Virus record (IMG/VR): IMGVR_UViG_3300028903_000001
Location: 1-64,000 of that record
Direction: 5' to 3' (one strand)
From: a virus
Taxonomy: Duplodnaviria; Caudoviricetes
DNA length: 64,000 nucleotides
The notes beneath the pieces were generated by a model, which ran no database searches, was not told the origin of the DNA, and was given only the letters and a program-made list of their open reading frames with translations. Every line of letters begins with the position of its first letter. Position 1 is the stretch's first letter. This document shows, in pieces, positions 12,467-59,101 of this stretch. The translations under genes were made by a program, and so were the position numbers.

Positions 12467-14389
12467 TCACGCACGTAGTATTTTCGAAGCGAGCGAGGTT
12501 GCCGCGTTCCGCATATGACGCGCCCAGTCCCGGCCTTCAGGGAAAGCGTTCACGCCCGTTTTCCTTCGCAGGTACTCGTACTCGTCATCGAGTTGGTTCG
12601 CCCTGTCCGTGAGCATAGTGAAAGCGAGGTCCCTATCGAAAACCTCAAGCGTCTTGCCCCGCATCACCCCTGGGAAAAGATGATCGCCCATCAACCTCGT
12701 CTCCTCAACCCATACGGGATCGAAGAAGTAGGTCTCCATTAGGGAGCATTGCATATCACTCATACGAATCATCAGAGTCTTGGCAGGATTACTCTTCGCC
12801 GCCGCCCGTAGCTCCGAATCGGTGAGAATGCCCATGACCGGATTCCTCTTCGCAGGGGACTCAAGCGCCCAGAAACTCCTCCCATAGGTATCCTGCGACG
12901 TTCCCATGTCTGGTCCCGTCAGCCACCTAAATTTGAGCCCTCTAATTTGGTCGAAGGATTCGCCTCTACCAAGTATCTCCACAGCTTCTAGCTTCCCAGA
13001 TTCTGATGATGTTGTAAATAGAATTTCGCCACTGCTAGGCTGCGGAATGTGACACCATCCATCACCCCCGGCATAGGGTTGGACCTCTTTCGGGATTTTG
13101 GGTATCTTTTTAGCTCTTCGCATGACCGGATTCCTTGACGGCTGCGGGGTCCATTCGTCCATCTTGAGATAATAGCCCTCGGCCAGCCCTTGCGCACGCC
13201 ACTTCTCCCACATCTTCGCGGCTGCCTGGGAGGTAATCCAGCCTTGCTTGAGCCTACCCCCACGCTGACGGAGCCACTTCACAGCCTCACGATAGAGGTC
13301 CGTTGCAATCCCCATCCGTTGCAGCTTGGGGGCCACTGCTACCTGACCCACCCAGAATACACCGGGTTCTTCTGGTTCTGGATGTAAATCTAACCTACCT
13401 ATGCTGTCGTCCCCCGGATTCTTTTTACGTAATTTCGGGGAGACCTTTGGACCGAAGCGTGCCACGAACGAAAGCTCTGGTACTTTCGTAGTACCTCCAC
13501 CCTCCTGCCAAACGCCCCCAGCGATTTCGATGCCGTCTTCCCTAGTGAATAGGGTAAGCTTCTTGGCTGTTGGCACATAGGGGGGCAAGGGGTCCGGGGG
13601 CTCAAGCGTAAATCGAGCATTCCTTCCCTTGGAGACCGGATTCCCCTTCGCAGGTTTGGGAAGCTTCCCCTCGGCCCTGAGTCGGCTGATCACCGAGTCG
13701 ATACTGATCTCGCACTTGCTCTGTAGCCACTCACGGTCAATCTCGTCGTCCAGGTCCCCACCCTTGGAAGCAAATTTGATCACCGCATCTACGCCGCTTT
13801 GCCACGCCTGCGGGTCATTTACGATCTGCTCCTGCTCAAGAGCCCAGGCAAGCACTGCGTGCCAGAACCTCTTCTTGTGCGAGGGTTGCGATATCTCACG
13901 CTTAGTTAGTGTTGGAGCCTTCCTGTCACCAATGAACAGTTTGCTATTAGCTATGCTCTGCACGGCTCTAGCGGCTCTCTGTTCGCGTGTATAGCCGCGC
14001 CCAAGATTTGGCAACTTGCCACTGGCAAGCCTCTCCTCGTATACCTCTTTTGCCCACTGTCTACCCGCAGCGTCGCTATCCATGACAGGGTTGTCCCTTC
14101 GCAGCCTCGACGGCTGCGGGCTGTAGGCCCACATGATCAATGCGAGGTGCCTTCGCGTCGGGCGACCATTGGAGTCGAACCAGGGCTCGTTAGATGCCTG
14201 CACCATATGCCTGGCAATGAAACCTTCCCGCTTTGCCCTCCACTCAGGCGATAGGGCTCGAGCCGATCCGGCGGCTTCGTAGGCGCGCAGAAAACCGCGA
14301 TTGCTCCGAGCCACTTCGGACACGCCGCGCCGCGCCGCCTCGCTTTCCCATGCGAGGACCTTGTCCAGGCTAAGATAGCTATGTGTCAT
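12467..14389 (-). CDS. Modular NP-linker protein including a GNAT acetyltransferase domain
   Basis: Six xxNP linkers; GNAT motif A VAVAPKLQRMGIATDLY...AAAKMWEK. Confidence 0.75.
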   Translation of the reverse strand: MTHSYLSLDKVLAWESEAARRGVSEVARSNRGFLRAYEAAGSARALSPEWRAKREGFIARHMVQASNEPWFDSNGRPTRRHLALIMWAYSPQPSRLRRDNPVMDSDAAGRQWAKEVYEERLASGKLPNLGRGYTREQRAARAVQSIANSKLFIGDRKAPTLTKREISQPSHKKRFWHAVLAWALEQEQIVNDPQAWQSGVDAVIKFASKGGDLDDEIDREWLQSKCEISIDSVISRLRAEGKLPKPAKGNPVSKGRNARFTLEPPDPLPPYVPTAKKLTLFTREDGIEIAGGVWQEGGGTTKVPELSFVARFGPKVSPKLRKKNPGDDSIGRLDLHPEPEEPGVFWVGQVAVAPKLQRMGIATDLYREAVKWLRQRGGRLKQGWITSQAAAKMWEKWRAQGLAEGYYLKMDEWTPQPSRNPVMRRAKKIPKIPKEVQPYAGGDGWCHIPQPSSGEILFTTSSESGKLEAVEILGRGESFDQIRGLKFRWLTGPDMGTSQDTYGRSFWALESPAKRNPVMGILTDSELRAAAKSNPAKTLMIRMSDMQCSLMETYFFDPVWVEETRLMGDHLFPGVMRGKTLEVFDRDLAFTMLTDRANQLDDEYEYLRRKTGVNAFPEGRDWARHMRNAATSLASKILRA

Positions 14390-15135
14390 CTCTTCCTCAA
14401 CGCGAGATACGCTATGAGTCCAGCTATAGCAGCGGTCCCGATGATCGGCAATGCGATATTGACTGGCTCAATGCCGGGTTGTACCGGCTGGACCGGAGGC
14501 TTTTCTGGCTCGATGGGAGGCTTGGGGGCAGGGGCTCGAGCCGCGTCCCACCATCGCAGCATCGCGGCTCTCGTCGCTGGTACCTGCTCGTGGTGCCCCA
14601 GGTCGAGATAGCCAGAGATGAGGTAACCGGGCTCGCCCCAGCACTCGTCGGGCTCGGGAAGGCCCCACTCCGTGGCAGAGGAGGGATCGACTTGAGGCGA
14701 GCCTAGCCTTCCCATCGCTTCCCGCCACCGATCCAGACTGTGATCGTATTGCCCCGGAGTCGAGGTGGAGGCAGTGGCGATAAGCGAGGTCTCACCCAGC
14801 CTCGACGCTGTGACGAGCCTATCGGCAAATGTGTTGCTGCCGTAGAGCCCGTCAATGCACATCCAGGCAGCGGCGTCCGAGGGACTCGAGGTGGACAGGA
14901 TAGCTCGCACCGCGCCGTGACCGGCAGAGAACCAAGCCACGCCAATAGGCTCGGTGCCACCGACCCGGTCCCGGAGCGATTTGCCTCCGAGCCAGGCCGA
15001 TGCGGCAGCTTGCATCGCGTCGCTGCCGATGTCCGAGCCCTTGGGATGAATGTGGATTACATCGTAGTCAGCGTCCTTGGGAACGCCGAGTTGATAGGCA
15101 TTCATAGGCCCGGTGACGATGAGGGTGCCAGGCAT
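14386..15135 (-). CDS. Alpha/beta-hydrolase-like protein with C-terminal TM anchor
   Basis: GVAWFSAGHG nucleophile-elbow-like, IDGLY, GHHEQ; Pro linker, TM and RKR tail. Confidence 0.55.
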   Translation of the reverse strand: MPGTLIVTGPMNAYQLGVPKDADYDVIHIHPKGSDIGSDAMQAAASAWLGGKSLRDRVGGTEPIGVAWFSAGHGAVRAILSTSSPSDAAAWMCIDGLYGSNTFADRLVTASRLGETSLIATASTSTPGQYDHSLDRWREAMGRLGSPQVDPSSATEWGLPEPDECWGEPGYLISGYLDLGHHEQVPATRAAMLRWWDAARAPAPKPPIEPEKPPVQPVQPGIEPVNIALPIIGTAAIAGLIAYLALRKR

Positions 15136-15137
15136 GT

Positions 15138-18100
15138 CTAGTAGTGACAGCGTGACGAGGGATCGTTCCAGTCACCCCTGCTCTGGTATCCTGGGCTCAA
15201 GACCCAGGAGCCGAAACCGGAGCGGTAGCCACCGACCTTGACACTTTTGCCAGCGGTGCGGTTCCAGAGCTTATGTGCCTTCTCGTCGGGAAGCTCAAGT
15301 GTCCAGTCACTACCCTTGCCGCTGAGTTGGCCAGGAATCTTGTATTGAGCCAAGAGCTTCTTGACTTGAGACTTGGTGACTGTTGTCGGGTTGTCGCAGA
15401 CCTTGTAGCCGGTAGAGAACCACATAACGCTTCCATCTGGCCGACGAACGCCACCTTTCCAGGACAGAGACCCGCCGGTAGGCTGCTTCTGCTTCTTGGC
15501 ATAGCGAAGCGCCGCTTTTTTGGCCGCAGCCTCGGTAATATGCGATGACCAAGGCACGAACCCTTTCCCCTGTTCCCATACGCCAGCTTCGAATCGACCC
15601 TTAGCCGGGTTGTCGCAGACCTTGCAGCCAGTCTCATACCTGTTTCGGAACCCGATCCACTTCTTGCGTTCACTCTCCGAGATCTGAGATGGTGACGCAG
15701 CCTCGACAGCGTCGAGCGTCATACGGATGTGACCGGCGAGGCTCTCGCCACCAAGCTCGTCACCCGTAGCATAGGTCCCCGTGTAGGTCTCCGCATCGGC
15801 GTAGGACACGGTGAATTTCACCTTCTCCTGAGCCGGTGGCTCGGCCCAAAGCGAGAGTTGCCTATCAGCCTTTGCCCAGACATTGCCGCCTTCAAGCGTA
15901 ACGCTCTTGCCCACGTCTTTCGAGCCGCTGAGCTTGGTCAAGGTGATGGATCGAGCCTTCACCTTGCCACCGCTCTTGACTGTCTTTGCCTCGGCATCGA
16001 GAGACGCAAGCGCATCTCTTACCCCAGTCTTCACAGCCTCAGACTCGGCACACTTTGCCTGAATACTCTTTGGGATATCCCACGGTCCCAGAACAACATT
16101 GACATACGCCCTGAACTCTTCGCCGGTTGGTCGTCGGCCCAGGTGCTTTGTGACCATCTCAAAAAGCTCAGGTACATTATGAGCCTTGAACAAGTCTTGT
16201 CGACTCACCTTCTTCTTGGTCGGGTTCTTCTTTGCCTTCGCCCCGAGCCCAAACCGCTCGACGCTAGCCTTGTCACTGGCCGGGAACGCAATGTTCATCC
16301 CCGACTCGTAGCGAGGCAGTTGGAATTGCTCCCAGCACTCCTTGTCTTTCACCTCGACGAGGCGGAAGCCGTTGACGACTTTGCCCGTATCCTTCACATA
16401 CCAGTAGTCGTAAGCGGCGGGAGCATTGGTCCAGGCGAGGAACTTAACACTCTTCTCGTCGGGGCCCATGGTCTTAATTCGCTTTTTAGCAGCCGACGCT
16501 ACAACCTTATCTTTACTTCTAGCCAGTACCGAATTGATATAGCCCATACACAAAATTCGTGGCGACTTGAGTTTACCTACCGAAGCTGGATTCTCGTCGG
16601 GGCCCATGTACTCGTCGATGTATTCCTTCGCCTGCTTCAGCGTACCAACCACCTTCCCATTGGGCATGTGTTCGGGGTGTTTGGCTATCCATCCAGACGT
16701 CTTTCTTCCCTTACCGAACTTTGGCATACTACGACCGTAGGTTTGGTAGCCAACCTGCATCCCGGAGAACTGTTCTATTGTCCAGCCTCTGTACTGCACC
16801 GTCTTTTCGGTCGGATTACTCTTCCGTCCCGCCGCCATGGCGCGCCGAGTCCCGACGAGGTATTCTAGACTCTTCTCAATCGTTACAAGCTCTTTGTGGC
16901 CCTTCCTGTCATGTCTCGACGTCGAGCTTGTCTTGAGACTGCGAATACGACCGAGCGCATCGGCGAGAGTCTCGGTGGGCACGGTCTTACCCGCGAAGAG
17001 GCTTGAGCCTACCGCGTAGATCGGGTCGCCTTGACCATAGTGCCAGTTCTGGAGCATGAGCCCTAGCTGTTTCGGGTCGATATAGTCGGGCCTGTCGTGG
17101 TGAGCCATGGACTTGTGGCTCCACGGCACCTTGACGGCTTCGCCCGACTCGATCTGGCGCTTCGCCTCGGCATCGCTGATCGGCACCCATTGCTTGTCGA
17201 GAAGGACATGCCACTGCTTGCCTTTCTGCGAGAGATGGACTTGATCCTGGCTCGGATTGCTGCGAGGCTTTGCTCGACCAAATGTCCCTCGCAGGCGCAA
17301 CTTCTTATCGATCAACTTGAGTTGAGCCGTGGTCAGCGGCTTACCGTCGCTGCGCTCGATAAAGAGACTGTACGATGTCCTGTCTCCAGTCGTGTAGTCC
17401 TGCTCCGACTCGGAAATAATCCAGTCGCGGCTAGAGGGGTGGCTACTGCTCCACTCAAGCCACGTCGCATCGTGGCTAACAGAGTCGAGAAGCGACTCGA
17501 GCGTATCGTAGCTCTCCGACTCCTCGACCTTCCAGCCCCTATCGTCGGTCTCGCCAGCCTCAAGAGCCTCCTCGTCCCAGGTCTCGTAAGCCATGCGGTA
17601 GATATAGCCACCGGCTCGAGGCACGGGGTTGGAGGCGATTCTCTTGTACAGCGTCGGGTTCTTCTTGGCCTTACCTCGCTTCGGCCCAAAGTTACCCGTC
17701 ATCACATCGGTGTAGTCTTGCTGGTTCTTGCGATGAGCCTTAATGGCATAGTCGATACAGCGACGGGTCAGCTTCGCGTCGAAACCGGCCTTCTTGCAGC
17801 GCTTCTCAATGTTGGCACGCACCTCTTCATCCGGCGTGCCGACATGGACTCGACCCATGAGCCAGTCGATTTCGAACTTGAGACCGTCCCACCTAGTTCG
17901 AGCCTGGGTCTTGGCAGGGTTTTCCTTCCAGCCCTTGACGATCCCGGACCATGCCTCTTTCGCGACGCCCGCCGCTTTGCGACCCACGCGCTTTCCGCCC
18001 TGCTTGAGCTTCTCACCCGTGTAGACCGCAGCCCGCTTGGTGAGTTCGGCTCCCTTCGCGGCCCCCGCCTTGGCGGCTTTCTTCGCCACCTCCGCACCCT

Positions 18101-18431
18101 TCTTTGTGCCAGCCTTTGCGGCGCGACTCGTCGCGGCCCCGGCACGCTTCGCTGCGCTCTTCGCCTTCTCCTTTGCCGACCCTGCCGCCGCCTTGGCGGC
18201 TTTCTTGGCCCTAAACTTCAGCGAGGGCGTAGGCAGATCGGAGGGGTTTTTCTTAGCCTTTAGCTTCGAAGCTTTCTTCGCCTTCGGCTTGGTGGCGAGT
18301 TTGGCAGATTTGCCTGCCCGACTCGTGCGAGTAGCCTTAGTAGGCTTCGACGCTTTCCTCGACTTGGGAGCGGTCTTGGTCGGATTGCGCTTCGGCGTCT
18401 TGCAGGCGAGAACTGTGGTCTTGGTAGCCAT
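15138..18431 (-). CDS. Large modular NP-linker protein (about 1097 aa) with histone H1-like N-terminus
   Basis: Start MATKTT (the upstream extension overlaps another gene); K/A-rich first 180 aa; 11 xxNP linkers. Confidence 0.8.
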   Translation of the reverse strand: MATKTTVLACKTPKRNPTKTAPKSRKASKPTKATRTSRAGKSAKLATKPKAKKASKLKAKKNPSDLPTPSLKFRAKKAAKAAAGSAKEKAKSAAKRAGAATSRAAKAGTKKGAEVAKKAAKAGAAKGAELTKRAAVYTGEKLKQGGKRVGRKAAGVAKEAWSGIVKGWKENPAKTQARTRWDGLKFEIDWLMGRVHVGTPDEEVRANIEKRCKKAGFDAKLTRRCIDYAIKAHRKNQQDYTDVMTGNFGPKRGKAKKNPTLYKRIASNPVPRAGGYIYRMAYETWDEEALEAGETDDRGWKVEESESYDTLESLLDSVSHDATWLEWSSSHPSSRDWIISESEQDYTTGDRTSYSLFIERSDGKPLTTAQLKLIDKKLRLRGTFGRAKPRSNPSQDQVHLSQKGKQWHVLLDKQWVPISDAEAKRQIESGEAVKVPWSHKSMAHHDRPDYIDPKQLGLMLQNWHYGQGDPIYAVGSSLFAGKTVPTETLADALGRIRSLKTSSTSRHDRKGHKELVTIEKSLEYLVGTRRAMAAGRKSNPTEKTVQYRGWTIEQFSGMQVGYQTYGRSMPKFGKGRKTSGWIAKHPEHMPNGKVVGTLKQAKEYIDEYMGPDENPASVGKLKSPRILCMGYINSVLARSKDKVVASAAKKRIKTMGPDEKSVKFLAWTNAPAAYDYWYVKDTGKVVNGFRLVEVKDKECWEQFQLPRYESGMNIAFPASDKASVERFGLGAKAKKNPTKKKVSRQDLFKAHNVPELFEMVTKHLGRRPTGEEFRAYVNVVLGPWDIPKSIQAKCAESEAVKTGVRDALASLDAEAKTVKSGGKVKARSITLTKLSGSKDVGKSVTLEGGNVWAKADRQLSLWAEPPAQEKVKFTVSYADAETYTGTYATGDELGGESLAGHIRMTLDAVEAASPSQISESERKKWIGFRNRYETGCKVCDNPAKGRFEAGVWEQGKGFVPWSSHITEAAAKKAALRYAKKQKQPTGGSLSWKGGVRRPDGSVMWFSTGYKVCDNPTTVTKSQVKKLLAQYKIPGQLSGKGSDWTLELPDEKAHKLWNRTAGKSVKVGGYRSGFGSWVLSPGYQSRGDWNDPSSRCHY

Positions 18432-21820: not shown

Positions 21821-22107
21821 CGTTCGCACCTGACGTTGCAGGATCGAAGCTCTTCGATCGTCGTCGCCTTCACGCCGCAACTCGGCCCCGAGCTATCGTC
21901 GGTCCAGATATAGCCGAGACCGGCGATTCGCTCGCACTTCGCTGTGCAGACCTCTTTGGACTCACCTCTCTCCGGGCAGTCGAAGTGTTCGAGCACGATG
22001 CAGAAGCCCTCGCACTTCTCGACGCCTTCCGGCACCACGGGCGGATTCGGCTTGCACGAGCCGATAGCGGTGATGATGGGAATCAGGATGAAAAATCGCT
22101 TGATCAT
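21817..22107 (-). CDS. Cys-rich lipoprotein
   Basis: Signal peptide with lipobox IGSC; multiple Cys. Confidence 0.65.
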   Translation of the reverse strand: MIKRFFILIPIITAIGSCKPNPPVVPEGVEKCEGFCIVLEHFDCPERGESKEVCTAKCERIAGLGYIWTDDSSGPSCGVKATTIEELRSCNVRCER

Positions 22108-22337
22108 GCCTTTAGTCGTTTCTCCATTGCGATGAGATGGGTGTAGTAGTCTGGGAACTCGAGCAAGTGGTCCACCGCTATTCTAGCTATCGTGTACCAG
22201 TTTCTGTCAACCGTCTCCCAGTGCTCGGTCTCCACTCCCAGTCCGATGTGGAACTGATCAAAGTCGATGTCGTTCCAGTTTAGGCCGAGCGCGTTGCCTA
22301 TCGACTCGGAGAACTTCTTTGAAGGCTTACGTGGCAT
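22104..22337 (-). CDS. DUF5661-like protein
   Basis: GLGVETEH...IAVDHLLEFPDYYTHL. Confidence 0.7.
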   Translation of the reverse strand: MPRKPSKKFSESIGNALGLNWNDIDFDQFHIGLGVETEHWETVDRNWYTIARIAVDHLLEFPDYYTHLIAMEKRLKA

Positions 22338-22398
22338 CACTTCCACTTGACCCCGCTCCAATTCCTGCTATCACTTGCCTAATGGTGGCTCGACACCT

Positions 22399-22653
22399 TC
22401 ATAATCGAGACCTCATTAGGAGGTACGCCAGCACGCCAACCGCGCCGAGCCCGGCGACCCAGACCAGGGGGCTGGTCTCTTCGTCACCAGCCTGTCTTTG
22501 AGAGACATTTAGCATACTTTCATACACCGACTTGTCCCCAGTCTGCTGGTCTCCAGTTTGCTGCCGTGAAGTGTCCCGAATGCTTTCGTAGAACGACTTG
22601 CCTCCCCATCCTGGCGGGAAAGCTCCAAGTCTACCTGGAATACGATATCTCAT
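22399..22653 (-). CDS. Small C-terminally anchored membrane protein
   Basis: LVWVAGLGAVGVLAYLLMRSR. Confidence 0.65.
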   Translation of the reverse strand: MRYRIPGRLGAFPPGWGGKSFYESIRDTSRQQTGDQQTGDKSVYESMLNVSQRQAGDEETSPLVWVAGLGAVGVLAYLLMRSRL

Positions 22654-23426
22654 TGCGCCGCTCCTAACATCTTGAAGGCTTTATCTCTGTCGATCTCAAG
22701 GTACCAAAGCTCGTGGGTATTATCGTCCTCGACCATCCTCCACGCAATATTGCGACGGTAGGGATCGCCCCAACTCGATACGGCTAGTGGACCTTTGGCG
22801 TTGTACGAGTCGAGTAGCTCCATGTGCCTGCCCACGATTTCCCCGGTCAGGACCCATGGCAGCTTACCGGGAACCCAGTCGATGTACGACTCGTCAACGC
22901 TCTGGCCGATCAAGACTGGGCGATGCGTACAGGCGATGATGTGCCGAATCGCGGCTCCGTTTTGGCCCTCTGGCGCGATGATGCGCTTCATCCTAACCCA
23001 GCCCTCGACTGCCGAGATGAGCGCACCGTAGTCGGGCTCCTCATTGACGCGAGACGGGATGAAGGGCCATTTCGCATCAGTGATGAGACCTAGCTCGGAA
23101 ACCACCGCAGCGGCATCGGGCGGGCGGCAGCCGAAATCGACAAGTCTGTCCTTTTTGCCACCGTTGCTGCGCATGCGAGTCGCGAAGTATCCGGCCAGAA
23201 CGCTCATCCATTTAGCGTTAATGCCTTCGTAGCGAAGCGTGTTGTATATCGCGTTGACGAATGCCCACCACACGCAGCTATTGGTGACGGTCTGGTTGCC
23301 ACCGATCCGTGAGAAGCGTTGGAGATGCACGTCTTCGCTGGGCGTGTTGGCGTCAAGCGCCCCAACGCTTCCCCACGGTGCGATCTCTTTTGGCGTAGGC
23401 TCGAGGCCGAACTTCACATTGCGCAT
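22650..23426 (-). CDS. Papain-like (C1) cysteine peptidase
   Basis: NQTVTNSCVWWA (Q/C), GRHMELL (H), SSWG. Confidence 0.7.
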   Translation of the reverse strand: MRNVKFGLEPTPKEIAPWGSVGALDANTPSEDVHLQRFSRIGGNQTVTNSCVWWAFVNAIYNTLRYEGINAKWMSVLAGYFATRMRSNGGKKDRLVDFGCRPPDAAAVVSELGLITDAKWPFIPSRVNEEPDYGALISAVEGWVRMKRIIAPEGQNGAAIRHIIACTHRPVLIGQSVDESYIDWVPGKLPWVLTGEIVGRHMELLDSYNAKGPLAVSSWGDPYRRNIAWRMVEDDNTHELWYLEIDRDKAFKMLGAAQ

Positions 23427-30662: not shown

Positions 30663-31496
30663 CTAGGCGCTTCGGCCACCCTTTTTCTTCGCGTTGTAAA
30701 GGTAGATTCCACCCGCCACTGCGGCTCCCGCCGCGAGAAGCATCCAGAGCGTGGAACTGTCACTGTCGCCTGCACCGACCGTATCGACACCGGGTGGGAC
30801 TCGGTCAACTGGGTCCTCCCCAGGCGGCTTGGGGGCCGGGGGCTCAACATCGACATAGGCTGTGCCGTCACTGTTGACCCTTCGATCCTTCCAATCGAGC
30901 GGACACTCTGGCCACTTGGCCGGGATACGAACGTAGTTGATACCATTCTGGAGCCAACCGTTTTCGCAGTCAGAGTCCATACGGTCGTAGTTGACCCTGA
31001 TGAGGGCTCGAGTCGTGTACAGTCCAGTTCCCCTCTGCCACGAGGACGGAAGCCATCCCTGTGCGATCTGCTCAAGCGTCTCGCCTTGTACCTCAAATTC
31101 GTAGGGTTTGACGTCGGTGTCTCTCGTCTTGGTACACTTGCCGGTGCCCTTTGCCTTAGCGGCGGGATCCGCGACCTTGGTGCCGTAACCATCGCCGGGA
31201 TACTCGGGGTCATCCGATGCGCCAAGCAGTCCAGTCACTCGGGGTCCGCCCAGGAACCGAGTCTGCGGCAGCGAGAACTTCTGCCCGACCTGAGCCCAGC
31301 GTGCCGGGATGTAGACCTTCAATCCCTCATGCCAATCCCTGGGATCGAAGACCAGGGCTCCGCAGCTATCGGTGGCGGTCCCGACATGGGGATTCATGTC
31401 GATGATGTCGCGATACGCCAGTCGGTTGCCGGTGTACATATACGCGACATCGGCGGGAGTCTCACCGCTCTTAACTACGTAGGAATACTTGCTCAT
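30663..31496 (-). CDS. LysM-domain protein with C-terminal TM
   Basis: YVVKSGETPADVA...DIIDMNP; second degenerate LysM; TM and basic tail. Confidence 0.75.
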   Translation of the reverse strand: MSKYSYVVKSGETPADVAYMYTGNRLAYRDIIDMNPHVGTATDSCGALVFDPRDWHEGLKVYIPARWAQVGQKFSLPQTRFLGGPRVTGLLGASDDPEYPGDGYGTKVADPAAKAKGTGKCTKTRDTDVKPYEFEVQGETLEQIAQGWLPSSWQRGTGLYTTRALIRVNYDRMDSDCENGWLQNGINYVRIPAKWPECPLDWKDRRVNSDGTAYVDVEPPAPKPPGEDPVDRVPPGVDTVGAGDSDSSTLWMLLAAGAAVAGGIYLYNAKKKGGRSA

Positions 31497-35089: not shown

Positions 35090-35137
35090 AACGACAAGGG
35101 CCACACCGGGTTTGGTTCCGGCGCGGCCCTCGTCGTT
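35090..35137 (-). terminator. 20-bp RNA stem downstream of the MCP candidate (terminator/stabiliser)
   Basis: AACGACGAGGGCCGCGCCGG/CCGGTGTGGCCCTTGTCGTT pairs fully on the minus strand using three G-U pairs. Confidence 0.65.
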
Positions 35138-35192
35138 CACTCACTCACAACAGACACTAGCGTTACCCGACGGGGTCGCGCACCAACACTCT

Positions 35193-36479
35193 CTAGTCTC
35201 GGTCTCCGACCGGACCAGCCTCACCGACCGCACTCATGTAATCGTCGATGATCTTGTCGGCATGGTCGGTGGGACCCGAGAGAGCCGAGCAGTTCGCGAA
35301 GGTGCCCTGCATCGGCGCGTAGGTACCATTGAGCAGTTCCTGCATGAGAGCCTTATTGCTCAGCACGCGCTTCCACTGGCTGCACACGCCCTCGCGGACC
35401 TGGAAGCCCTTGAAGCCCAGGCCGACGCGGACCATGCCGCTGGGGATCTGGGTGAAAGCAGCGGAACCCGTATGAGCTTCCCCGTCCTCGAGCAGCGGGA
35501 ACGTGGCAGCAATGTTCGGGATCGGGCCTTGGCAGGCACGGATGACGGCTTCGTCGATCATGCGAGTGACGTAGTCCTCGTCACCCGCGCCGGGCTCCAT
35601 GAACATCTGAATCTTGGTGTTCGTGTCGAGCGGCATCGGGAAGGGCAGACGGTACCACGTCTCGACGGCGGGAAGCGCGTTGGGCTGACCATAGGCGGCA
35701 TCGGTCGCGACCATCCGGTTGGGAACGATCTCGCCGTCGGCGGTCTGCTCGCAGTTGATGGGAACAAAGAAGGGGAGATTGGGAACAGCAGCCGCCCCAT
35801 CGGAAACCGCCGGGCTCTGCGGCATGGCGGGATCGGTTGCCGCGCGAGCGTTGTAGCGACGGGTCAGGAAAAGATGCGGAGTCTTGGCATCGCTCAAGCC
35901 CTGGAACTCGACGCGGGAGCAGGCATTGCCGATATCGATGAGACGCTCGTTCAGGATCGTCTCGAGGCTCGAGTTCGGGCACTTGAATTCGAGGCGCATC
36001 GCGTGCATCAACGCCCACATAAAGCGCCACGTCGCGCCGCCATGGTCGAGTTGAGCCGCGCAGGGCACAGCGCCGCCGCGAGCGCCAGTGAACAGGGCGT
36101 CGAGGAAGGCTGCGTCTTGGCGCAGGTTGATGGGGGAGGCGGGAGTCTCCAAGATCGTGTTCGGGAAGCTGTTGCCTTCGATCACGGTCGAGTAGGGCTC
36201 GGTGTAGCAGAAGACGCAGACGCCGGTCACGATGATCGGGTCGTCGGGCGTGAAGGTCGGAGCGGTCAGGTTGCTACGGCTGAACTTGCGCGTATTGCTC
36301 TCGGCGATCTGGAAGACCTGAACCTCGTTGCCGGTCAGCCAGTTGTAGTCCTCGGCATCGATGGGAAGCTCGATGTTGCGGACAGCGGACAGGAGCGTGG
36401 GGTACACGCTAAGCGGCAGGCGAGACATGGCCAGCATGTCATCGACCGTATTGCACTTGAACATCTTGGGATACGACAT
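35193..36479 (-). CDS. Candidate major capsid protein (vertical jelly-roll type)
   Basis: 428 aa, beta-rich, strong GC3 codon bias, 3' stem-loop, sits after a basic membrane/core gene; VFQ...SNL...IIVTGV segment recalls jelly-roll MCPs. Confidence 0.55.
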   Translation of the reverse strand: MSYPKMFKCNTVDDMLAMSRLPLSVYPTLLSAVRNIELPIDAEDYNWLTGNEVQVFQIAESNTRKFSRSNLTAPTFTPDDPIIVTGVCVFCYTEPYSTVIEGNSFPNTILETPASPINLRQDAAFLDALFTGARGGAVPCAAQLDHGGATWRFMWALMHAMRLEFKCPNSSLETILNERLIDIGNACSRVEFQGLSDAKTPHLFLTRRYNARAATDPAMPQSPAVSDGAAAVPNLPFFVPINCEQTADGEIVPNRMVATDAAYGQPNALPAVETWYRLPFPMPLDTNTKIQMFMEPGAGDEDYVTRMIDEAVIRACQGPIPNIAATFPLLEDGEAHTGSAAFTQIPSGMVRVGLGFKGFQVREGVCSQWKRVLSNKALMQELLNGTYAPMQGTFANCSALSGPTDHADKIIDDYMSAVGEAGPVGDRD

Positions 36480-36548
36480 TTCGATTCACCTTGGGTTAGA
36501 AACCAGCCTCATTTTTCGCGTCGAAGTGGCCACTTCCACATAGCCTCA

Positions 36549-38048
36549 CTATCGACCAGGGATCCTGTAAGGACCCCTTACGTCACTGCGACGAATCACG
36601 AAGTCGCTACGATTCAGGTTGGCGTTGAGAGCGAGTCCGCTCTGCGAGCGCTGAGAGACCTGTTGTTGCTGCGGATCGTAGCTGTAGCGATTCACAGACT
36701 CATTGGGCCACTCGCGCCCCTCGGGGCGACCGGGAACGTTGAGTTCACTGCCGAAATCACTTATCCGTCGCCCAGACTCTGTCTCGACACGAGAGATGGG
36801 AGGCATTTCTCGACGAGAAATGGGCAGAGTCGGCTGCTGGCGAGAGATGCCAGACGGCAGGAACGTCCCATCCGGGTCTCGGGGAGAGAGCTTGATGGGC
36901 GGAACCGGCTCGCGAGGAGACACGGGAGGCTGCGGCTGCTGCGTGATCGGGGGACGTGCATTGACACTGTCCATGCAGTCGGAACCGCCGCCACCCACCA
37001 CATCGAACGGCCAGGGCTGGCACGATTCCCTACCACTGCTCACGTAGTTGCTCGGATCAACAGGCACACGAGTACAACCGTATTTGCCAACGCTACCGGC
37101 TGCCTGGGGGCCGATCATCATTGGCTTACCGAGAAAAGGGCGCAGGTACCCTCGGGGGCCAGCGAGCCCATACTGAAGTCGGTTGGCAAGCTTCGTCTCG
37201 CCCTCCTTGGGCTCCAGAAGCTTGGGCATCAAGTAGTCCTTGATGATCAGGGTGATACCCTTGGCGGCAAAGCCCGTCGCCATACCGGCGAGAAGGTAGG
37301 TGCCCACAACGCTCTTCTTGCGAAGCAGGAACGCGCCAACGCTCAGACCACCAGCCGCAGCGGCTTGCGCAAAAATGCGGATTCCGTCAGCCTTCTTGAC
37401 GATGGCAGCGGTTGCGTCTTGACCGTACTTGACGGCTCCGCTGTCACCCTTGCGGGTCGCGACGTAACGGTCGAGCACGTCGGCACCAGCCAAACCGAGG
37501 ATGAAGCCACCCGCTGCCGAGACGATCGCCTTGGTCTGGTTGGCAGGGTTCTCGCGGATGATCATGCGAGCCTTGCCCTTGCTGCTCATCGAGTAGCGAA
37601 CCGTCTTCTTCTTCGCCTTCTGAAGCCGCTTGCCCACGGTGCGAACGAACCGAGCAGTCTCCTTCGGCATGGGGCGACGACGCTTCTTGGAAGTTGTCAC
37701 CTTGACGGTACGGTTACCACTATCACTCTTCGTGATCTTGGTACCGGCACGCTTGCGACCAGTCTTCGCCTTGGTCGAATTTGCCTTACGGTTCGCTGCG
37801 ATCATCCGCTTGGTAGCGGCGATCTGGGCAGGGGTGCGCTTCTTGCTGGAGCGCCGACGCTTCTTAGCCATTTTCCTAGTCTCCTTACCTGAAGCCGGAG
37901 AAGTCCGGCTCACTCCTCCGACGACAGCCGCCCTCATGCGAACTGCGCCGACACTACGCTTTTTCGGCGAGGACTTCTTCTTGGCCTTCTTGTTGCGGGC
38001 AACGGCCCGCACACCGTGAGCAAAGCCAGCGGGTTCAACGAACGCCAT
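36549..38048 (-). CDS. Basic core/membrane protein (K/R-rich N-terminus, ENP motif, hydrophobic helices, Pro-rich tail)
   Basis: Protamine-like N-half, IIRENP, then about 3 Gly/Ala hydrophobic segments. Confidence 0.7.
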   Translation of the reverse strand: MAFVEPAGFAHGVRAVARNKKAKKKSSPKKRSVGAVRMRAAVVGGVSRTSPASGKETRKMAKKRRRSSKKRTPAQIAATKRMIAANRKANSTKAKTGRKRAGTKITKSDSGNRTVKVTTSKKRRRPMPKETARFVRTVGKRLQKAKKKTVRYSMSSKGKARMIIRENPANQTKAIVSAAGGFILGLAGADVLDRYVATRKGDSGAVKYGQDATAAIVKKADGIRIFAQAAAAGGLSVGAFLLRKKSVVGTYLLAGMATGFAAKGITLIIKDYLMPKLLEPKEGETKLANRLQYGLAGPRGYLRPFLGKPMMIGPQAAGSVGKYGCTRVPVDPSNYVSSGRESCQPWPFDVVGGGGSDCMDSVNARPPITQQPQPPVSPREPVPPIKLSPRDPDGTFLPSGISRQQPTLPISRREMPPISRVETESGRRISDFGSELNVPGRPEGREWPNESVNRYSYDPQQQQVSQRSQSGLALNANLNRSDFVIRRSDVRGPYRIPGR

Positions 38049-39495: not shown

Positions 39496-40344
39496 CTATC
39501 TCCTCTTGCCCATCCGTGTGAACCCATAGACCCCAGCCGCAATGGCCCCGATCGCGAGTAGGCCAACGACGATCCCCGAGCCGCCTCGATCCTCACCCGT
39601 CTCGAACCTGTCCCCACCCGTACCGTCAAGGTCGATATAAGCGGCTCCAGCATACCCATTCATGATGGCGCTGTTGTAGGCCGCGATGATGCTGTCGACG
39701 TAGCCGCATGGTATAGTCCATACGCCCCAGCGATCAGGTCCATCGCATTGCGCGTTGACCGAGCATGTCGCTTTGCCCGAGTTGAACCTGGCAAGCGCAC
39801 CTACAATGTTTAGATTCTCCGCGTCGATACATTGCAGAATGAGTCTTGCGCCGTGAATCAGGTTCCACGAGGGGTGAAGCACGGTCTCCTTGCCGACTCC
39901 GCTGCTTCCCGAGACGAGCCTGGCCATCTCAAGCGAGAGTTGTGTGAGTCCCAGCCTGCCTCCATCTCCGATCTTGGTGGACTCGCCCCCGCTCTCAATC
40001 GCCACGACTGCGGCGAGAAGCGCGGGTGAAATGCCGTTTGCCTCCGCGCTTTGCGAGATAAGAAGCTTCCACTCATCGACCTTGGCGGGCCACGAGGTGA
40101 GCCTGGGAATTCCGATCCCCTCAACCTCAATCTCTCCGCTGTGAAGGTAGCGGTAGCGAGACGATCCGCCGCAGGGCGACCGGGTCCACTCGCTCATCGG
40201 ATCCTCGGGTCTCGGCTCGTCTCTTTTCGGAGGAGGCGCTGGCATATCCTCGCCGGAATCTATCAGAGAAAGGTCGGGGGGATCGTCGGTGTCAAACCCG
40301 GCAGGAAGACCGCTCGTTTTAAGACTGATGCAGGACTGAGTCAT
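39496..40344 (-). CDS. Lytic transglycosylase (SLT) with C-terminal TM
   Basis: ISPALLAAVVAIESGG, GLTQL, ALARFNSG, YVDSI. Confidence 0.85.
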   Translation of the reverse strand: MTQSCISLKTSGLPAGFDTDDPPDLSLIDSGEDMPAPPPKRDEPRPEDPMSEWTRSPCGGSSRYRYLHSGEIEVEGIGIPRLTSWPAKVDEWKLLISQSAEANGISPALLAAVVAIESGGESTKIGDGGRLGLTQLSLEMARLVSGSSGVGKETVLHPSWNLIHGARLILQCIDAENLNIVGALARFNSGKATCSVNAQCDGPDRWGVWTIPCGYVDSIIAAYNSAIMNGYAGAAYIDLDGTGGDRFETGEDRGGSGIVVGLLAIGAIAAGVYGFTRMGKRR

Positions 40345-42505: not shown

Positions 42506-43924
42506 TCATATGTGCCAGAAAAGCCTATTCGAATCTGCGAAGGCCAGAGCCTGCTCCCTCACCAACCAGGCATATTCCCACTGCGCAGCGGCGTCTCCAG
42601 ACTCGAGAGCACGCTTCGCCGCCATCGACACGTCGATGGGCAGGATCTTGCCGTTGAACCCAACCGCGCCCAGCATCTGCTTGACCTCTCTGATCAGGTA
42701 GCTGGGGCACGTCGCGAGCGGAAAGGTGTCGGCCACTGCGACACTGGCTCCCACCTTGACCTCGAGGTATGGGTAGCGAAGGTCGGTGAGATCCGTTGCT
42801 GCCTCGATCTGGCTGCGGGTCATTTTCGGCTTCCACCTAGCCCTGATCCGCTTCATGCGACCAGCGACATCAGACACAGACTTGGCGAGGTGGGCCTCGT
42901 GACCCAGCGATGTAGTGCCCTCGGCGAGCCGGGGCCCGAGCACGTTCATGTGACCATAGGCTCTTGGGCTCCAGTTTCCGGTAAGCTGCTCAAAAAGCTC
43001 AACGGAAGCGGACCTTTCGAAGTCTCTAGTCGTTTCGGTCCACGCATCGGTCTTGTAGACCAGCGCTGGCCATCCCTTCACCTTCTCGGGCCGAAGCGAA
43101 CGAGAGGCGAGGGGAATGCGAGCGAAAAGGGTCAATAGGCCGAAGTTGGTAGCCGGAACATCGGACAGGGCAAGGCTGGGGTAGAGCATCGCGTTGCCGC
43201 AGCGCTGAATCCCCGCAATGACTTGCTCCAATGGGGCCGAGTACATGCCAATGTTGATGCAGCGCGTTAGCAGAATCTGCTGGCCCTTGACCACGCCTAC
43301 GATTCCGCCCTCGTCAACGGTTAGCTTCGGCGCGACGGTGCAGAAGTCTACGCCTGGAGCGACTCTTCGCTCCATCTCGCCACGGCTCCACTGCGCCTCA
43401 ACATCGACCTCCATCAGCCCACTCGGAGCAGTGCCGTGAAGCACCTTTCTCTTCTTGGCCGAGTAGTAGGGCATGGTCTTATCGATATGAGACAGGTCAT
43501 TGAACCAGGGCTTGCCCTCGAGCGGCATGACTGTGAAGTCAACCCTTGACTCTTCCAGGGATGACCTGAGCGTTGACTCTATGCCTTCAAAAATCTCGTC
43601 AACCGACACGTCTCTGCGATCGGAACTGAAGATTTGACCCACCCCTCCACGGACCGATGTGCCCCAGCCCCCTTTTTCGAGACTAGCATCTTCGAATCCG
43701 AGTAGGTGTTGAAGCTGAATCTCAAGCCTGCGTTCGTAATTGTTGAGTGGATACTTGAGTTTGCCGAAAAGCCTCGCCTCGAGCCTGTCGGCCCTGCCCT
43801 GAATCGCGACGCGATATGTCTTGTCGGGCATGACCCAGGCAAGCACGTCTGAGCCGCCCATCTGCTTCGTACCGTCCCAGCGGAGCAAGCCATCGGCTCG
43901 TTTCTTGAGAAGTTCGGGAATCAT
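42506..43924 (-). CDS. Hypothetical protein (472 aa)
   Basis: Long ORF, ATGA overlap, no recognised motif. Confidence 0.7.
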   Translation of the reverse strand: MIPELLKKRADGLLRWDGTKQMGGSDVLAWVMPDKTYRVAIQGRADRLEARLFGKLKYPLNNYERRLEIQLQHLLGFEDASLEKGGWGTSVRGGVGQIFSSDRRDVSVDEIFEGIESTLRSSLEESRVDFTVMPLEGKPWFNDLSHIDKTMPYYSAKKRKVLHGTAPSGLMEVDVEAQWSRGEMERRVAPGVDFCTVAPKLTVDEGGIVGVVKGQQILLTRCINIGMYSAPLEQVIAGIQRCGNAMLYPSLALSDVPATNFGLLTLFARIPLASRSLRPEKVKGWPALVYKTDAWTETTRDFERSASVELFEQLTGNWSPRAYGHMNVLGPRLAEGTTSLGHEAHLAKSVSDVAGRMKRIRARWKPKMTRSQIEAATDLTDLRYPYLEVKVGASVAVADTFPLATCPSYLIREVKQMLGAVGFNGKILPIDVSMAAKRALESGDAAAQWEYAWLVREQALAFADSNRLFWHI

Positions 43925-45078
43925 CGTCCGGTCCTCTCCATTGTCGGGTTACCTCTGGCAACAACTGCCTTGCAGTTCTGCGACACCGCTCTTCCCTGCC
44001 TGATCCACGTCTTGCAGATTTGGCCCAGTGTCGCCACGGCTCCAGGGCTTCTCTTTCCCGACACGACATTGTATGCGGCGAGCGTCGCCTTGGTCCTGAC
44101 GCTTGGCTCTCTCTGCTCACTCTGTCCGCTTCTCAGCATGGACAAGCAGATGTTGACGTAGGCTGTCTCATAGTCCCTCTTCAACCTGGCCCCGTCCCTA
44201 TAGTGCTTGTTCAGCAGAGTTAGCGAGTACTTCTTCCTGGCCGGGGAGTCGAGCCGGTACTTTCGCTGCTGCGGCAGCGCGAACAGGGCTAGGCTCATCC
44301 GTTTTCGCTGTTCAGGCGTGACCGGGTTGGGTTTAGCCACGACGGTATGTGTGCCGGGGACATCTCGGATATCCGCGTCGTAAAGCGCTCTGGCGAGCTT
44401 CTGGTAGACCTTGCGCTTATTGCGCTCTGTCAGATACGGCTCAACCCTGATCCAGGTCGGGGAGTTGAGATAGGCGAGCATGCTCAACTTGACCCTGGCG
44501 GGAGTCGAGGCGCGAAGCAGTAGCGCCTCATCGACAACCTGCTGAGAAAACGCCTCAACCTCTTCCGCATCGTTGTAGTAGGCCGACTTATCGCCAGGTT
44601 TCAAGGCGTACGAGGGCCGGTTCGGTGACCAGGGAGACCTGGCGACATGTGTCGCCTCGTGCTTGAGTACGTTAAGGATAGCCTGATGCAGATCGCGGCG
44701 AGAATACACGCTCCAAGCGCCGAGGCTGGGCCGAATCGGCACGTATAGGCTCAGGACTCCTCCGATCTTCTTCCCTTTCTCTGCTACACTTAGGTATCCA
44801 AAGCTTCCACCGAAAGATATCCTCGAGCTATCGTTGAAAATGACCTGGGTCACAATGGGAACGGTGATGTTTCCATTGGTGGTAGGCATCTCGATCTCGT
44901 GCCGATCCAGTTCCTCACCGTACACGAATGGAGACTTGTCTCTGTCGAACTCTCCAAGAGCCTCTTCGTTCAGCTTGTCCCGGATCCGTTCGCTAATCTT
45001 ACCAGCGATGATCGAGGCAGACTTCCTAAGCTGCTCGGAGTCGATGCGGACCGGGGCGGGATTGCTGCGACGTGCCAT
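43921..45078 (-). CDS. NP-linker protein with HExxH zincin-like metallopeptidase module
   Basis: LKHEATH...YYNDAEEVEAF; RRSNP, AKPNP, ARGNP linkers. Confidence 0.7.
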   Translation of the reverse strand: MARRSNPAPVRIDSEQLRKSASIIAGKISERIRDKLNEEALGEFDRDKSPFVYGEELDRHEIEMPTTNGNITVPIVTQVIFNDSSRISFGGSFGYLSVAEKGKKIGGVLSLYVPIRPSLGAWSVYSRRDLHQAILNVLKHEATHVARSPWSPNRPSYALKPGDKSAYYNDAEEVEAFSQQVVDEALLLRASTPARVKLSMLAYLNSPTWIRVEPYLTERNKRKVYQKLARALYDADIRDVPGTHTVVAKPNPVTPEQRKRMSLALFALPQQRKYRLDSPARKKYSLTLLNKHYRDGARLKRDYETAYVNICLSMLRSGQSEQREPSVRTKATLAAYNVVSGKRSPGAVATLGQICKTWIRQGRAVSQNCKAVVARGNPTMERTGR

Positions 45079-58291: not shown

Positions 58292-59101
58292 TCAGAGGAT
58301 GACGCAGCCGCTGCCGCCGACTTCCTTACCGGCCCAACGCGGAATTAGGATGTTATCGATGACTCGCGGCGCAATGACCTTGGACTGATAGATATGGTCG
58401 GTGCATGTCTTTTCCATATTGCGGTAGCCAAGAAGCCAAAGCCCACCCACCTTGTACTGGAACTTGCCAGGAATCTTGGTGTAGGTATACTTGCCTATCA
58501 GTTTCTTTACACCATTTACCTCCTGATAGCACAGTGTCGGTATGGGCGCATGATCCGCGTCTACCAGCGCACTGATTGTCACTGGATCCATGTAGACCGG
58601 AGACTGCATGACATGGTCGAGAATCTCGAGTGAGGCTTGTTCCGTGGAGATGGAAGCCTGGGGCGGCTTAGGCGTCTCACTGCTAGTCACGACGAGGCAA
58701 TGCTCGGTGGGTGCGATGTTTGGATTGCCAGAGCTACCGAAGGCGGCGAGCCTCGCATACCGCTTCCAGGCAGGCCACATCAGATGGATGCCGTCGCAGG
58801 CCAAGACGAAGTCTGGCGCGCCACCGTCAGGGCTCGAGAGAAGAACCGCAACGCCGATACAAGTCTCGGAAAAGCCGAGAATGGCAACCCTGTTTCCAGG
58901 CTTATCTAAGCCATGATTCTTTAGCGCCTGCTTGATGGGACGCTCGCCATAGGCAGATTTGATAGCATTGCTGTAGGCGTCAAAGTTTCTACCATTGCCC
59001 TTTGGCATGGTAATCTCTGCCGTGTCGGATCTAAAGCTAGCCCGCCAGTTCTTCCCGAACCAGGAGTGAAGCTCGCCGAAGTGAAGGATGATGTCTGTCA
59101 T
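58292..59101 (-). CDS. Alpha/beta-hydrolase-like protein
   Basis: VAILGFSET, ACDGIH, DHIYQ; same motif order as 14386-15135. Confidence 0.45.
   Translation of the reverse strand: MTDIILHFGELHSWFGKNWRASFRSDTAEITMPKGNGRNFDAYSNAIKSAYGERPIKQALKNHGLDKPGNRVAILGFSETCIGVAVLLSSPDGGAPDFVLACDGIHLMWPAWKRYARLAAFGSSGNPNIAPTEHCLVVTSSETPKPPQASISTEQASLEILDHVMQSPVYMDPVTISALVDADHAPIPTLCYQEVNGVKKLIGKYTYTKIPGKFQYKVGGLWLLGYRNMEKTCTDHIYQSKVIAPRVIDNILIPRWAGKEVGGSGCVIL

Follow-up and report, generated by a model that had tools for sequence, protein, structure and literature searches.

A recurring basic-x-Asn-Pro seam joins exchangeable modules in large proteins of an uncultivated double-stranded DNA virus

Introduction

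The usual view of bacteriophages is that each gene encodes one protein and that site-specific maturation is limited and concerns the head proteins. Maturation coded by a short site is known from the adenovirus protease, which recognizes (M/I/L)XGX-G, from pp220 and pp62 of African swine fever virus (ASFV), with Gly-Gly-X, from T4 gp21, with L/I-x-E and cleavable capsid-targeting leaders, and from giant phages, with S/A/G-x-E. Another class, the polyvalent proteins of phages and conjugative elements, was described by Iyer, Burroughs, Anand, de Souza and Aravind in 2017 as large proteins made of many unrelated, reshuffled domains, and it was proposed that these domains are released by an embedded metallopeptidase (PMC5512222). 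Here we describe the first 64 kb (64,000 nucleotides, hereafter the window) of the IMG/VR virus record IMGVR_UViG_3300028903_000001, in which two large proteins of 1097 and 640 amino acids (aa), encoded at 15138-18431 and 12467-14389 and called polyproteins A and B, consist of modules joined by a recurring basic peptide that ends in Asn-Pro (NP). We refer to this peptide as the seam. Features of the window lie on the minus strand unless otherwise stated.

The seam is a real and conserved junction code in viral multi-module proteins. It is probably also an undescribed one; no published description of a basic-x-Asn-Pro seam was found in the literature. By analogy, the closest described class is that of the polyvalent proteins and the closest mechanism is the site-coded maturation of adenovirus, ASFV, T4 and the giant phages. 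Like polyvalent proteins, the seam proteins carry on one polypeptide many unrelated and reshuffled domains, acetyltransferase and zincin-like modules among them, that are also found solo or in other orders. Unlike in polyvalent proteins, for which the 2017 paper gives no junction motif and from which the word "linker" is absent (PMC5512222), each junction here has one conserved peptide. The signature polyvalent families (LPD, MPTase-PolyVal, ArdC-N, DarA-N and others) were not detected by Pfam in the two proteins and six relatives. Pfam found nothing in polyprotein A or in its six relatives, so that the "LPD25-like" label given to one segment in a preliminary description of this DNA was not confirmed, and in polyprotein B it found GNAT only.

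With processed polyproteins the seam proteins share a recurring consensus at module limits, which here lies in disordered linkers and is conserved across relatives. As in the site-coded maturation of DNA viruses, one short motif recurs at the domain limits of proteins that are basic, DNA-associated or packaged, a short conserved N-terminal leader is followed by the motif, and a cysteine protease would be encoded by the virus. They differ in the motif itself and in the candidate protease, which is papain-like and not adenain-like or a T4-type serine enzyme. They also differ in that the products of the putative cleavage would be a variable accessory cassette instead of fixed structural proteins. 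Unlike 2A ribosome skipping (D(V/I)ExNPGP), the residue after the seam Pro is T/V/A/S; none of the 17 seams of the two proteins reads NPGP and one reads NPG.

A conserved peptide at the borders of freely exchangeable modules would amount to a new principle in the organisation of viral accessory genes. Cutting at the seams, if it takes place, would mean that prokaryotic DNA viruses process polyproteins by a new site code, and protein engineering would gain a short and portable peptide for cleavage or tagging. Even now the seam can be used as a cheap marker to split unannotated giant viral proteins into units and to find new domain families.

The seam is constrained as a peptide

All the NP motifs that the preliminary description had listed were confirmed, in the two large proteins as well as in a 385-aa protein (43921-45078) and in a basic 499-aa open reading frame (ORF). 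In polyprotein A there are 11, at residues 16, 62, 171, 258, 268, 392, 539, 614, 736, 941 and 1014, and in polyprotein B six, at residues 100, 250, 324, 420, 516 and 534. The comparison with the rest of the proteome that had been proposed gave a 5.8-fold excess, with 17 NP in the 1737 residues of the two proteins against 61 in the 36,226 residues of the remaining ORFs of the genome (Fisher p = 7e-8). Composition-preserving shuffles had a mean of 1.24 NP for polyprotein A (p < 5e-5) and 1.05 for polyprotein B (p = 2e-4). NP followed by T/V/A/S/I was 13-fold enriched, and Asn is followed by Pro in 11 of its 26 occurrences in the larger protein and in six of 16 in the smaller. DP, SP, TP, GP, NG and NA were not enriched in the two proteins, and the NP excess is thus not an effect of proline or of linker composition.

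A logo made from 191 sites in 32 NP-rich proteins has R/A/V at position -3, K (47%) or R (14%) at -2 and K/S/A at -1, then N, P and T/V/A/S. The seam consensus is therefore [R/A]-K-x-N-P-[T/V/A/S], in which Asn and Pro are invariant at all seams, and the spacing between seams peaks at 70-130 residues. The codons behind them vary synonymously (AAC or AAT for Asn; CCG, CCT, CCC or CCA for Pro), therefore the selection acts on the peptide and not on the DNA. A DNA-level recombination signal was considered as an explanation of the seams and was ruled out by the same variation. SSIP-1 proteins hold 23 NP where 15.6 are expected and have no similarity to this genome.

Seams as module limits

Polyprotein A (isoelectric point (pI) 9.9) begins with MATKTT, a start common to its homologues, and is laid out as a conserved 15-aa leader, a Lys/Ala-rich basic region (residues 17-171; 155 residues, pI 10.8-12.0) and about nine modules. 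An exhaustive HMMER search with this protein recovered 541 proteins, almost each of which matches one stretch only. The stretches fall into about ten classes, namely the basic N-terminal region and residues 168-254, 268/275-381, 388-546, 529-638, 663-733, 741-799, 821-939, 944-1008 and 1016-1097. For nine of the 11 NP sites the limit of such a class is only a few residues away; the other two are found in the low-complexity basic region.

The first seam, NP16 (TPKRNP, 18381-18386), follows the leader MATKTTVLACKTPKR; six full-length relatives (P0022-P0027) and P0119 likewise have the leader, with NP at residues 15-17. NP62 (KAKKNP, 18243-18248) lies within the low-complexity basic region, and NP171 (GWKENP, 17916-17921) is kept as GWKENP in L002, L005, L006 and L015. 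A double seam, NP258 (KAKKNP) and NP268 (IASNP), at 17625-17660, stands ahead of the commonest module (residues 269-392), and is followed by NP392 (KPRSNP, 17253-17258) and NP539 (GRKSNP, 16812-16817). NP614 (PDENP, 16587-16592) is at a homology limit and is also covered by the structural model described below, while NP736 (KAKKNP, 16221-16226) is at a homology-module limit. The last two seams both read KVCDNP: NP941 (15606-15611) is the point where the proteins of relatives terminate, and NP1014 (15387-15392) closes a module that can be missing as a whole.

An AlphaFold model of residues 160-620 of polyprotein A, built with 93 sequences (mean predicted local distance difference test score (pLDDT) 75.6), has three domains with pLDDT of 76-98, the third of which is broken by a low-confidence loop (444-448) that holds no NP. 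NP171, 258, 268, 392 and 614 fall in segments with pLDDT <50, which extend over residues 254-271 at the double seam and over 389-392, NP539 is at a domain edge where confidence drops, and no NP lies inside a confident domain of the model. The expectation that NP would fall at domain boundaries was therefore borne out by homology and by the model, with five of six modelled seams in linkers and the sixth at a domain edge.

Polyprotein B consists of module 1 (residues 1-100, weakly DUF6321-like), a helical module, a GNAT module and three more. Its seams at residues 100, 250, 324, 420, 516 and 534 map to 14087-14092, 13637-13642, 13415-13420, 13127-13132, 12839-12844 and 12785-12790. Homologues cover 14-35% of its length, and the ends of the high-scoring segment pairs meet NP in both query and subject, as in P0009, where the match at 544-653 lies between NP540 and NP646, and in P0011, where 521-619 lies between NP517 and NP623. 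In the AlphaFold model of this protein only residues 1-100 are confident and the confidence collapses at 102-105, just past NP100.

The 385-aa protein is also organised as beads on a string, with MARRS-NP (NP6), a zincin-like HEATH module (motif at residue 140), NP251, a basic module, NP377 and an 8-residue tail. The 499-aa protein (36549-38048) has a very basic N-terminal half with one seam-like IRENP, which is followed by a hydrophobic segment. A stand-alone 85-aa gene (22104-22361) encodes a DUF5661-like module that in other viruses is embedded in NP-seamed proteins (P0009, P0015, P0164).

GNAT is the only module that could be assigned to a known family. PDB sequence searches with the three seam proteins and with a neighbouring hydrolase gave only a non-significant GNAT match, to polyprotein B (E = 0.37). 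The acidic module at residues 269-392 (17256-17627) has no family name and is the most widespread: more than 100 homologues are known, and many of these stand alone as proteins of 110-150 aa. Foldseek with the 461-residue model gave no significant match and fold searches otherwise returned generic helical-bundle matches; the model of module 269-392 weakly resembles the "novel fold" gp72 of cyanophage Mic1 (6l2w; Z 6.2, 90 residues aligned).

Conservation and exchange of modules in relatives

The beads, 70-200 aa in size, are modules that fold independently and that also occur free-standing or combined in other ways. Between them runs a disordered basic linker of about 10 residues with the seam consensus at its end, the same peptide follows a short N-terminal leader, and relatives gain, lose and swap modules at the seams. 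At least nine modules have independent homologues, many of which stand alone at 70-150 aa or occur in other architectures. The full-length relatives P0022-P0027 (864-1440 aa) have 10-17 NP each, and the best 150 hits have 210 NP where 65 are expected. A distantly related virus, on a 139.8-kb contig, encodes two adjacent proteins of 928 and 953 aa with the same seams (PRKANPVD, RRKGNPVD). Both the conservation of NP in distant homologues and the occurrence of modules on their own or reshuffled, which the preliminary description had named as checks, were thus found. The free-standing homologues of module 269-392 are mostly without NP, and their C-termini project 0-13 residues before the seam. 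Many proteins start with a short basic leader and then NP (e.g. MARRSNP, MSKPNP, MAKSSTSKKKRKPNP), and in the polyprotein A family the leader of 15 residues is conserved as MA.K….[VI].C…K[KR]NP.

The exchange of modules is best followed in a relative of about 90% identity on Parcubacteria-labelled contigs. It has a 402-aa version of polyprotein B without the NP100-NP516 span, a 565-aa version of the 385-aa protein (92% identical) with an extra 185-aa module right after the last NP, and a 969-aa polyprotein A with other modules past residue 551. The constant module of polyprotein A (about residues 820-939) is C-terminal in relatives, whose proteins end with it (…TGCxxCK*), and here continues via DNP into two extra modules. 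The C-terminal module of the 385-aa protein is also found inside P0026, and its HEATH module is fused to a DUF6321-like module in P0006. Loss of modules from seam to seam was seen in independent sludge and groundwater assemblies. In one groundwater contig residues 946-1013, the module between NP941 and NP1014, are missing and the junction reads a fresh seam, RKRNP, and in another the sequence departs, immediately past …SRLRR of module 1, into a different linker that ends in AKGNP (each a single low-depth contig).

That appended modules begin exactly where the proteins of relatives end would also be expected if the seams were scars of gene fusion that serve translation, i.e., the in-frame reading of a former gene's ribosome-binding site and spacer, from which internal initiation still yields separate products. 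In three of the six seams of polyprotein B (12839-12844, 13127-13132 and 14087-14092) the peptide reads R/K-x-N-P-V-M, with a Shine-Dalgarno-like (SD-like) AAGG/GAGG 8-9 nt before an in-frame ATG (e.g. AAGAGGAATCCGGTCATG), so that translation could also begin internally, at residues 103, 423 and 519, and yield nested products. The same pattern is present at NP377 of the 385-aa protein, and the genome uses canonical GGAG/GAGG sites. Nevertheless, the pattern was found in only six of 87 seams of ten genes, compared with 3% of random positions, and none of the 11 seams of polyprotein A has a start codon after it. As the synonymous variation of the Asn and Pro codons also places the constraint on the peptide, we consider a translational scar improbable.

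It might also be argued that the seam is merely a favoured inert linker, in which Asn-Pro caps a helix or strand and recurs by common descent of the cassettes with no signalling role. An N-cap residue followed by Pro is a common helix start, and the modules after NP171 and NP941 do begin with helices or turns within a few residues. Ser, Thr and Asp would be equally good caps, yet SP, TP and DP are unenriched; moreover, the motif precedes unrelated folds, recurs in distant viruses with the added conserved Lys at -2, and arises de novo at the RKRNP deletion junction. An inert linker is therefore hardly likely.

A possible role in proteolytic processing

Judged from the peptide alone, the seam looks like a mark that says either cut here or dock here. 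The best reading, to which we give nearly an even chance, is that it is a proteolytic processing site. It would be the recognition site of a virus-encoded endopeptidase, by which the chains would be cut into separate proteins in the manner of viral polyproteins, and the conserved leader of 15 residues would come off in the way a targeting peptide does. This reading is based on the enrichment specific to NP, the position of seams at module limits, the conserved leader followed by NP, the presence of a papain-like peptidase candidate 4 kb away and the zincin-like modules in related seam proteins. More tentatively, and with the balance somewhat against it, basic-x-Asn-Pro could be the cut-site code of a polyprotein strategy in a broad and uncharted set of prokaryotic double-stranded DNA viruses. 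Accessory cassettes would be made as one chain, perhaps loaded via the leader and the constant end module, and released at every seam by a viral papain-like or post-proline peptidase or by Asn-Pro self-scission. Under such a scheme the virus could gain or discard modules at the seams and would not have to evolve new expression signals each time.

The papain-like protein is the best enzyme candidate; zincin-like modules and an alpha/beta-hydrolase would be weaker ones. In the papain family (C1) an oxyanion Gln stands six residues before the catalytic Cys, and an Asn-Ser-Trp follows the catalytic His by 16-18 residues. The candidate (258 aa, 22650-23426) shows Gln45, Cys51, His201 and SSWG217-220 with papain spacing, is 65% identical in a syntenic relative and is encoded 4 kb from the seam-protein genes. 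Gln45, Cys51, His201 and Trp219 are invariant in four orthologues, and the position of the papain Asn is occupied by Ser or Gly. Pfam has no match to this ORF, and the only PDB match of a profile of the four orthologues was the papain-family xylellain (3ois, E = 0.0078), with the catalytic residues aligned. Prediction of a complex between this protein and a 41-residue double-seam peptide gave a score of 0.01, which is not evidence either way. The preliminary description had named two proteases that might act on the seams; the first does look papain-like in these comparisons, while the other, 59098-60600, has only a transglutaminase-like Cys motif read from its sequence. In that ORF the motif GEDCDGLVVAF…H is reminiscent of transglutaminase-like cysteine proteases and is accompanied by C-terminal membrane helices. 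On a distant contig (L014, 1-621) a similar protein, with GWGDCDDSAPL…H, is encoded directly upstream of a homologue of the hydrolase.

The hydrolase (249 aa, 14386-15135) is a tail-anchored protein of alpha/beta-hydrolase fold whose start and stop overlap or abut both polyprotein genes. All of 18 homologues keep Ser70, in a WFSAGHG nucleophile elbow, as well as Asp95 and His181, and the protein has a C-terminal membrane anchor. It follows polyprotein A in all four relatives with context and lies directly downstream in L002, L006 and L015. Its Atlas model aligns to alpha/beta-hydrolases (TM 0.63), and the closest named clusters are Peptidase_S9/esterase (0.78). Post-proline peptidases, which would be well fitted to cut after Asn-Pro, are among the enzymes with the alpha/beta-hydrolase fold. 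HEL[GA]H zincin-like modules were found inside related seam proteins, as is the HEATH module in this genome, and the HExxH modules gave no significant match to a known peptidase family.

Several observations weigh against processing. Many proteins carry NP just 4-10 residues from their start, where a cut would free a trivial peptide, and a Pro right after the scissile Asn is disliked by most endopeptidases. No match to polyprotein A or B was found by tblastn in 50,697 cultured-phage records. Neither the papain-like candidate nor the hydrolase could be linked to the seams: in the 21 kb examined of a contig that encodes a homologue of the former there is no NP-rich protein, and the most distant homologue of the latter sits among cell-wall enzymes on a 12-kb contig with no seam protein, so that a role of the hydrolase as a lysis or entry esterase is at least as likely. 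Furthermore, NP324 of polyprotein B (LRKKNPGD) probably lies in a loop inside the GNAT domain. The GNAT profile alignment starts at residue 330 with profile position 45 of 116, thus the fold must start upstream of NP324; the site could not be placed in the model of this protein because the model is confident only for residues 1-100. NP sites inside folded domains, which the preliminary description had taken as refuting a role at junctions, were thus not found at the modelled seams, with NP324 as the probable exception.

The NP close to the N-terminus is better accounted for if the seams are never cut and the repeated short motif ahead of each module docks the chain to packaged DNA, to the capsid or membrane interior or to a packaging or ejection machine, or serves as a hinge. 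We regard such a role as rather unlikely. The motif also occurs 4-16 residues from the N-terminus of single-module proteins, where cutting would achieve little. The linkers are strongly basic and, together with the Lys/Ala-rich region of polyprotein A, compatible with DNA binding, and multivalent copies would raise avidity. On the other hand, that Asn and Pro never change whereas the basic residues do fits an enzyme site better than an electrostatic tether, and free-standing module homologues work without the motif. The polyvalent-protein literature does have proteins that are delivered uncut (N4 vRNAP, ArdC, TraC1; PMC5512222).

Alternatively, the seams might be cut without any protease, the Asn side chain attacking its own carbonyl so that a succinimide forms and the Asn-Pro bond breaks; we think this quite doubtful. 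Asn and Pro are the only invariant residues, a Pro after Asn blocks deamidation and favours chain cleavage, and the absence of a protease gene that co-varies with the seams fits a reaction that needs no dedicated protease. Uncatalysed Asn-Pro cleavage in free peptides, however, is slow, taking weeks. The same invariant Asn-Pro is cleaved in three unrelated systems of asparagine peptide lyases, FlhB/YscU (N6, NPTH), reovirus mu1 (N7, Asn42-Pro43) and RsgI (PMC3207474, PMC10328401). Those sites occur once per protein, in turns of folded domains where an acidic residue activates them, and the lyases depend on a fold that places Asp or Glu by the Asn (PMC3207474), whereas the seams occur in up to 17 copies per protein, in disordered Lys/Arg-rich linkers with pLDDT <50, and have no sequence similarity to those families.

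The virus and its other genes

The complete record is 119,895 bp long with direct terminal repeats and is rated complete. Nearly all its genes are on the minus strand. The viral DNA was found in activated-sludge sequencing runs, with no RNA run among those listed, and parts of it also occur in assemblies from groundwater, wastewater and other sludge. Pattern scans of IMG/VR with both polyproteins, the hydrolase and the hydrolase profile gave no relatives. The nearest relative of the virus, P0004 and P0172 (35- and 69-kb contigs), was deposited within a metagenome-assembled genome of a "Parcubacteria group bacterium", a label that is either a binning artefact or a hint of the host.

The genes for the seam proteins are located between a lysis and structural block and a replication block. 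Terminase, portal and HK97-type capsid families had no match in PHROGs and Pfam among about 45 ORFs. The ORF 35193-36479 has PRD1 P3-type capsid proteins as its closest named Atlas neighbours (score 0.78, a lead only), the Pfam PRD1 P3 capsid models had no match in the genome, and tblastn with the putative capsid protein had no match in the 50,697 cultured-phage records. The preliminary description had spoken of a capsid gene next to the one for the basic protein with IRENP; that identity was not confirmed, and a jelly-roll capsid is unproven because the Atlas lead scores only 0.78. The 926-aa plus-strand ORF 35112-37892 lies in GC-rich DNA and overlaps two genes of the minus strand, 35193-36479 and 36549-38048; it can almost certainly be regarded as a shadow frame.

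A hydrophobic anchor, terminal or internal, was found in 16 ORFs at 14-61 kb as against three elsewhere in the genome. The anchored ORFs, which lie in 14386-60600, include the hydrolase, an SLT transglycosylase (39496-40344) and the 500-aa ORF 59098-60600. Tailed phages do not usually show such an abundance, which hints at a virion that contains a membrane. The virion might be tailless, with its membrane inside, and the seam proteins may possibly be packaged. ORF 30663-31496 has a weak N-terminal LysM match and a weak C-terminal LPXTG-anchor-like match, both under the Pfam cut-offs.

Two ORFs with a Cas12f1-like/TnpB TNB domain (L011 16602-18596 and 19641-20000 onward; genome 80602-82596 and 83641-85365) are IS200/605-type passengers, and one of them has a seam-like SRKNPV. 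Pentapeptide-repeat proteins are encoded at L011 5420-6823 (genome 69420-70823) and at genome 67038-67862 and 98123-98806. The 274-aa protein from 67038-67862 carries three seam-like motifs at its end, KHNPV, KKNPT and RSNPV.

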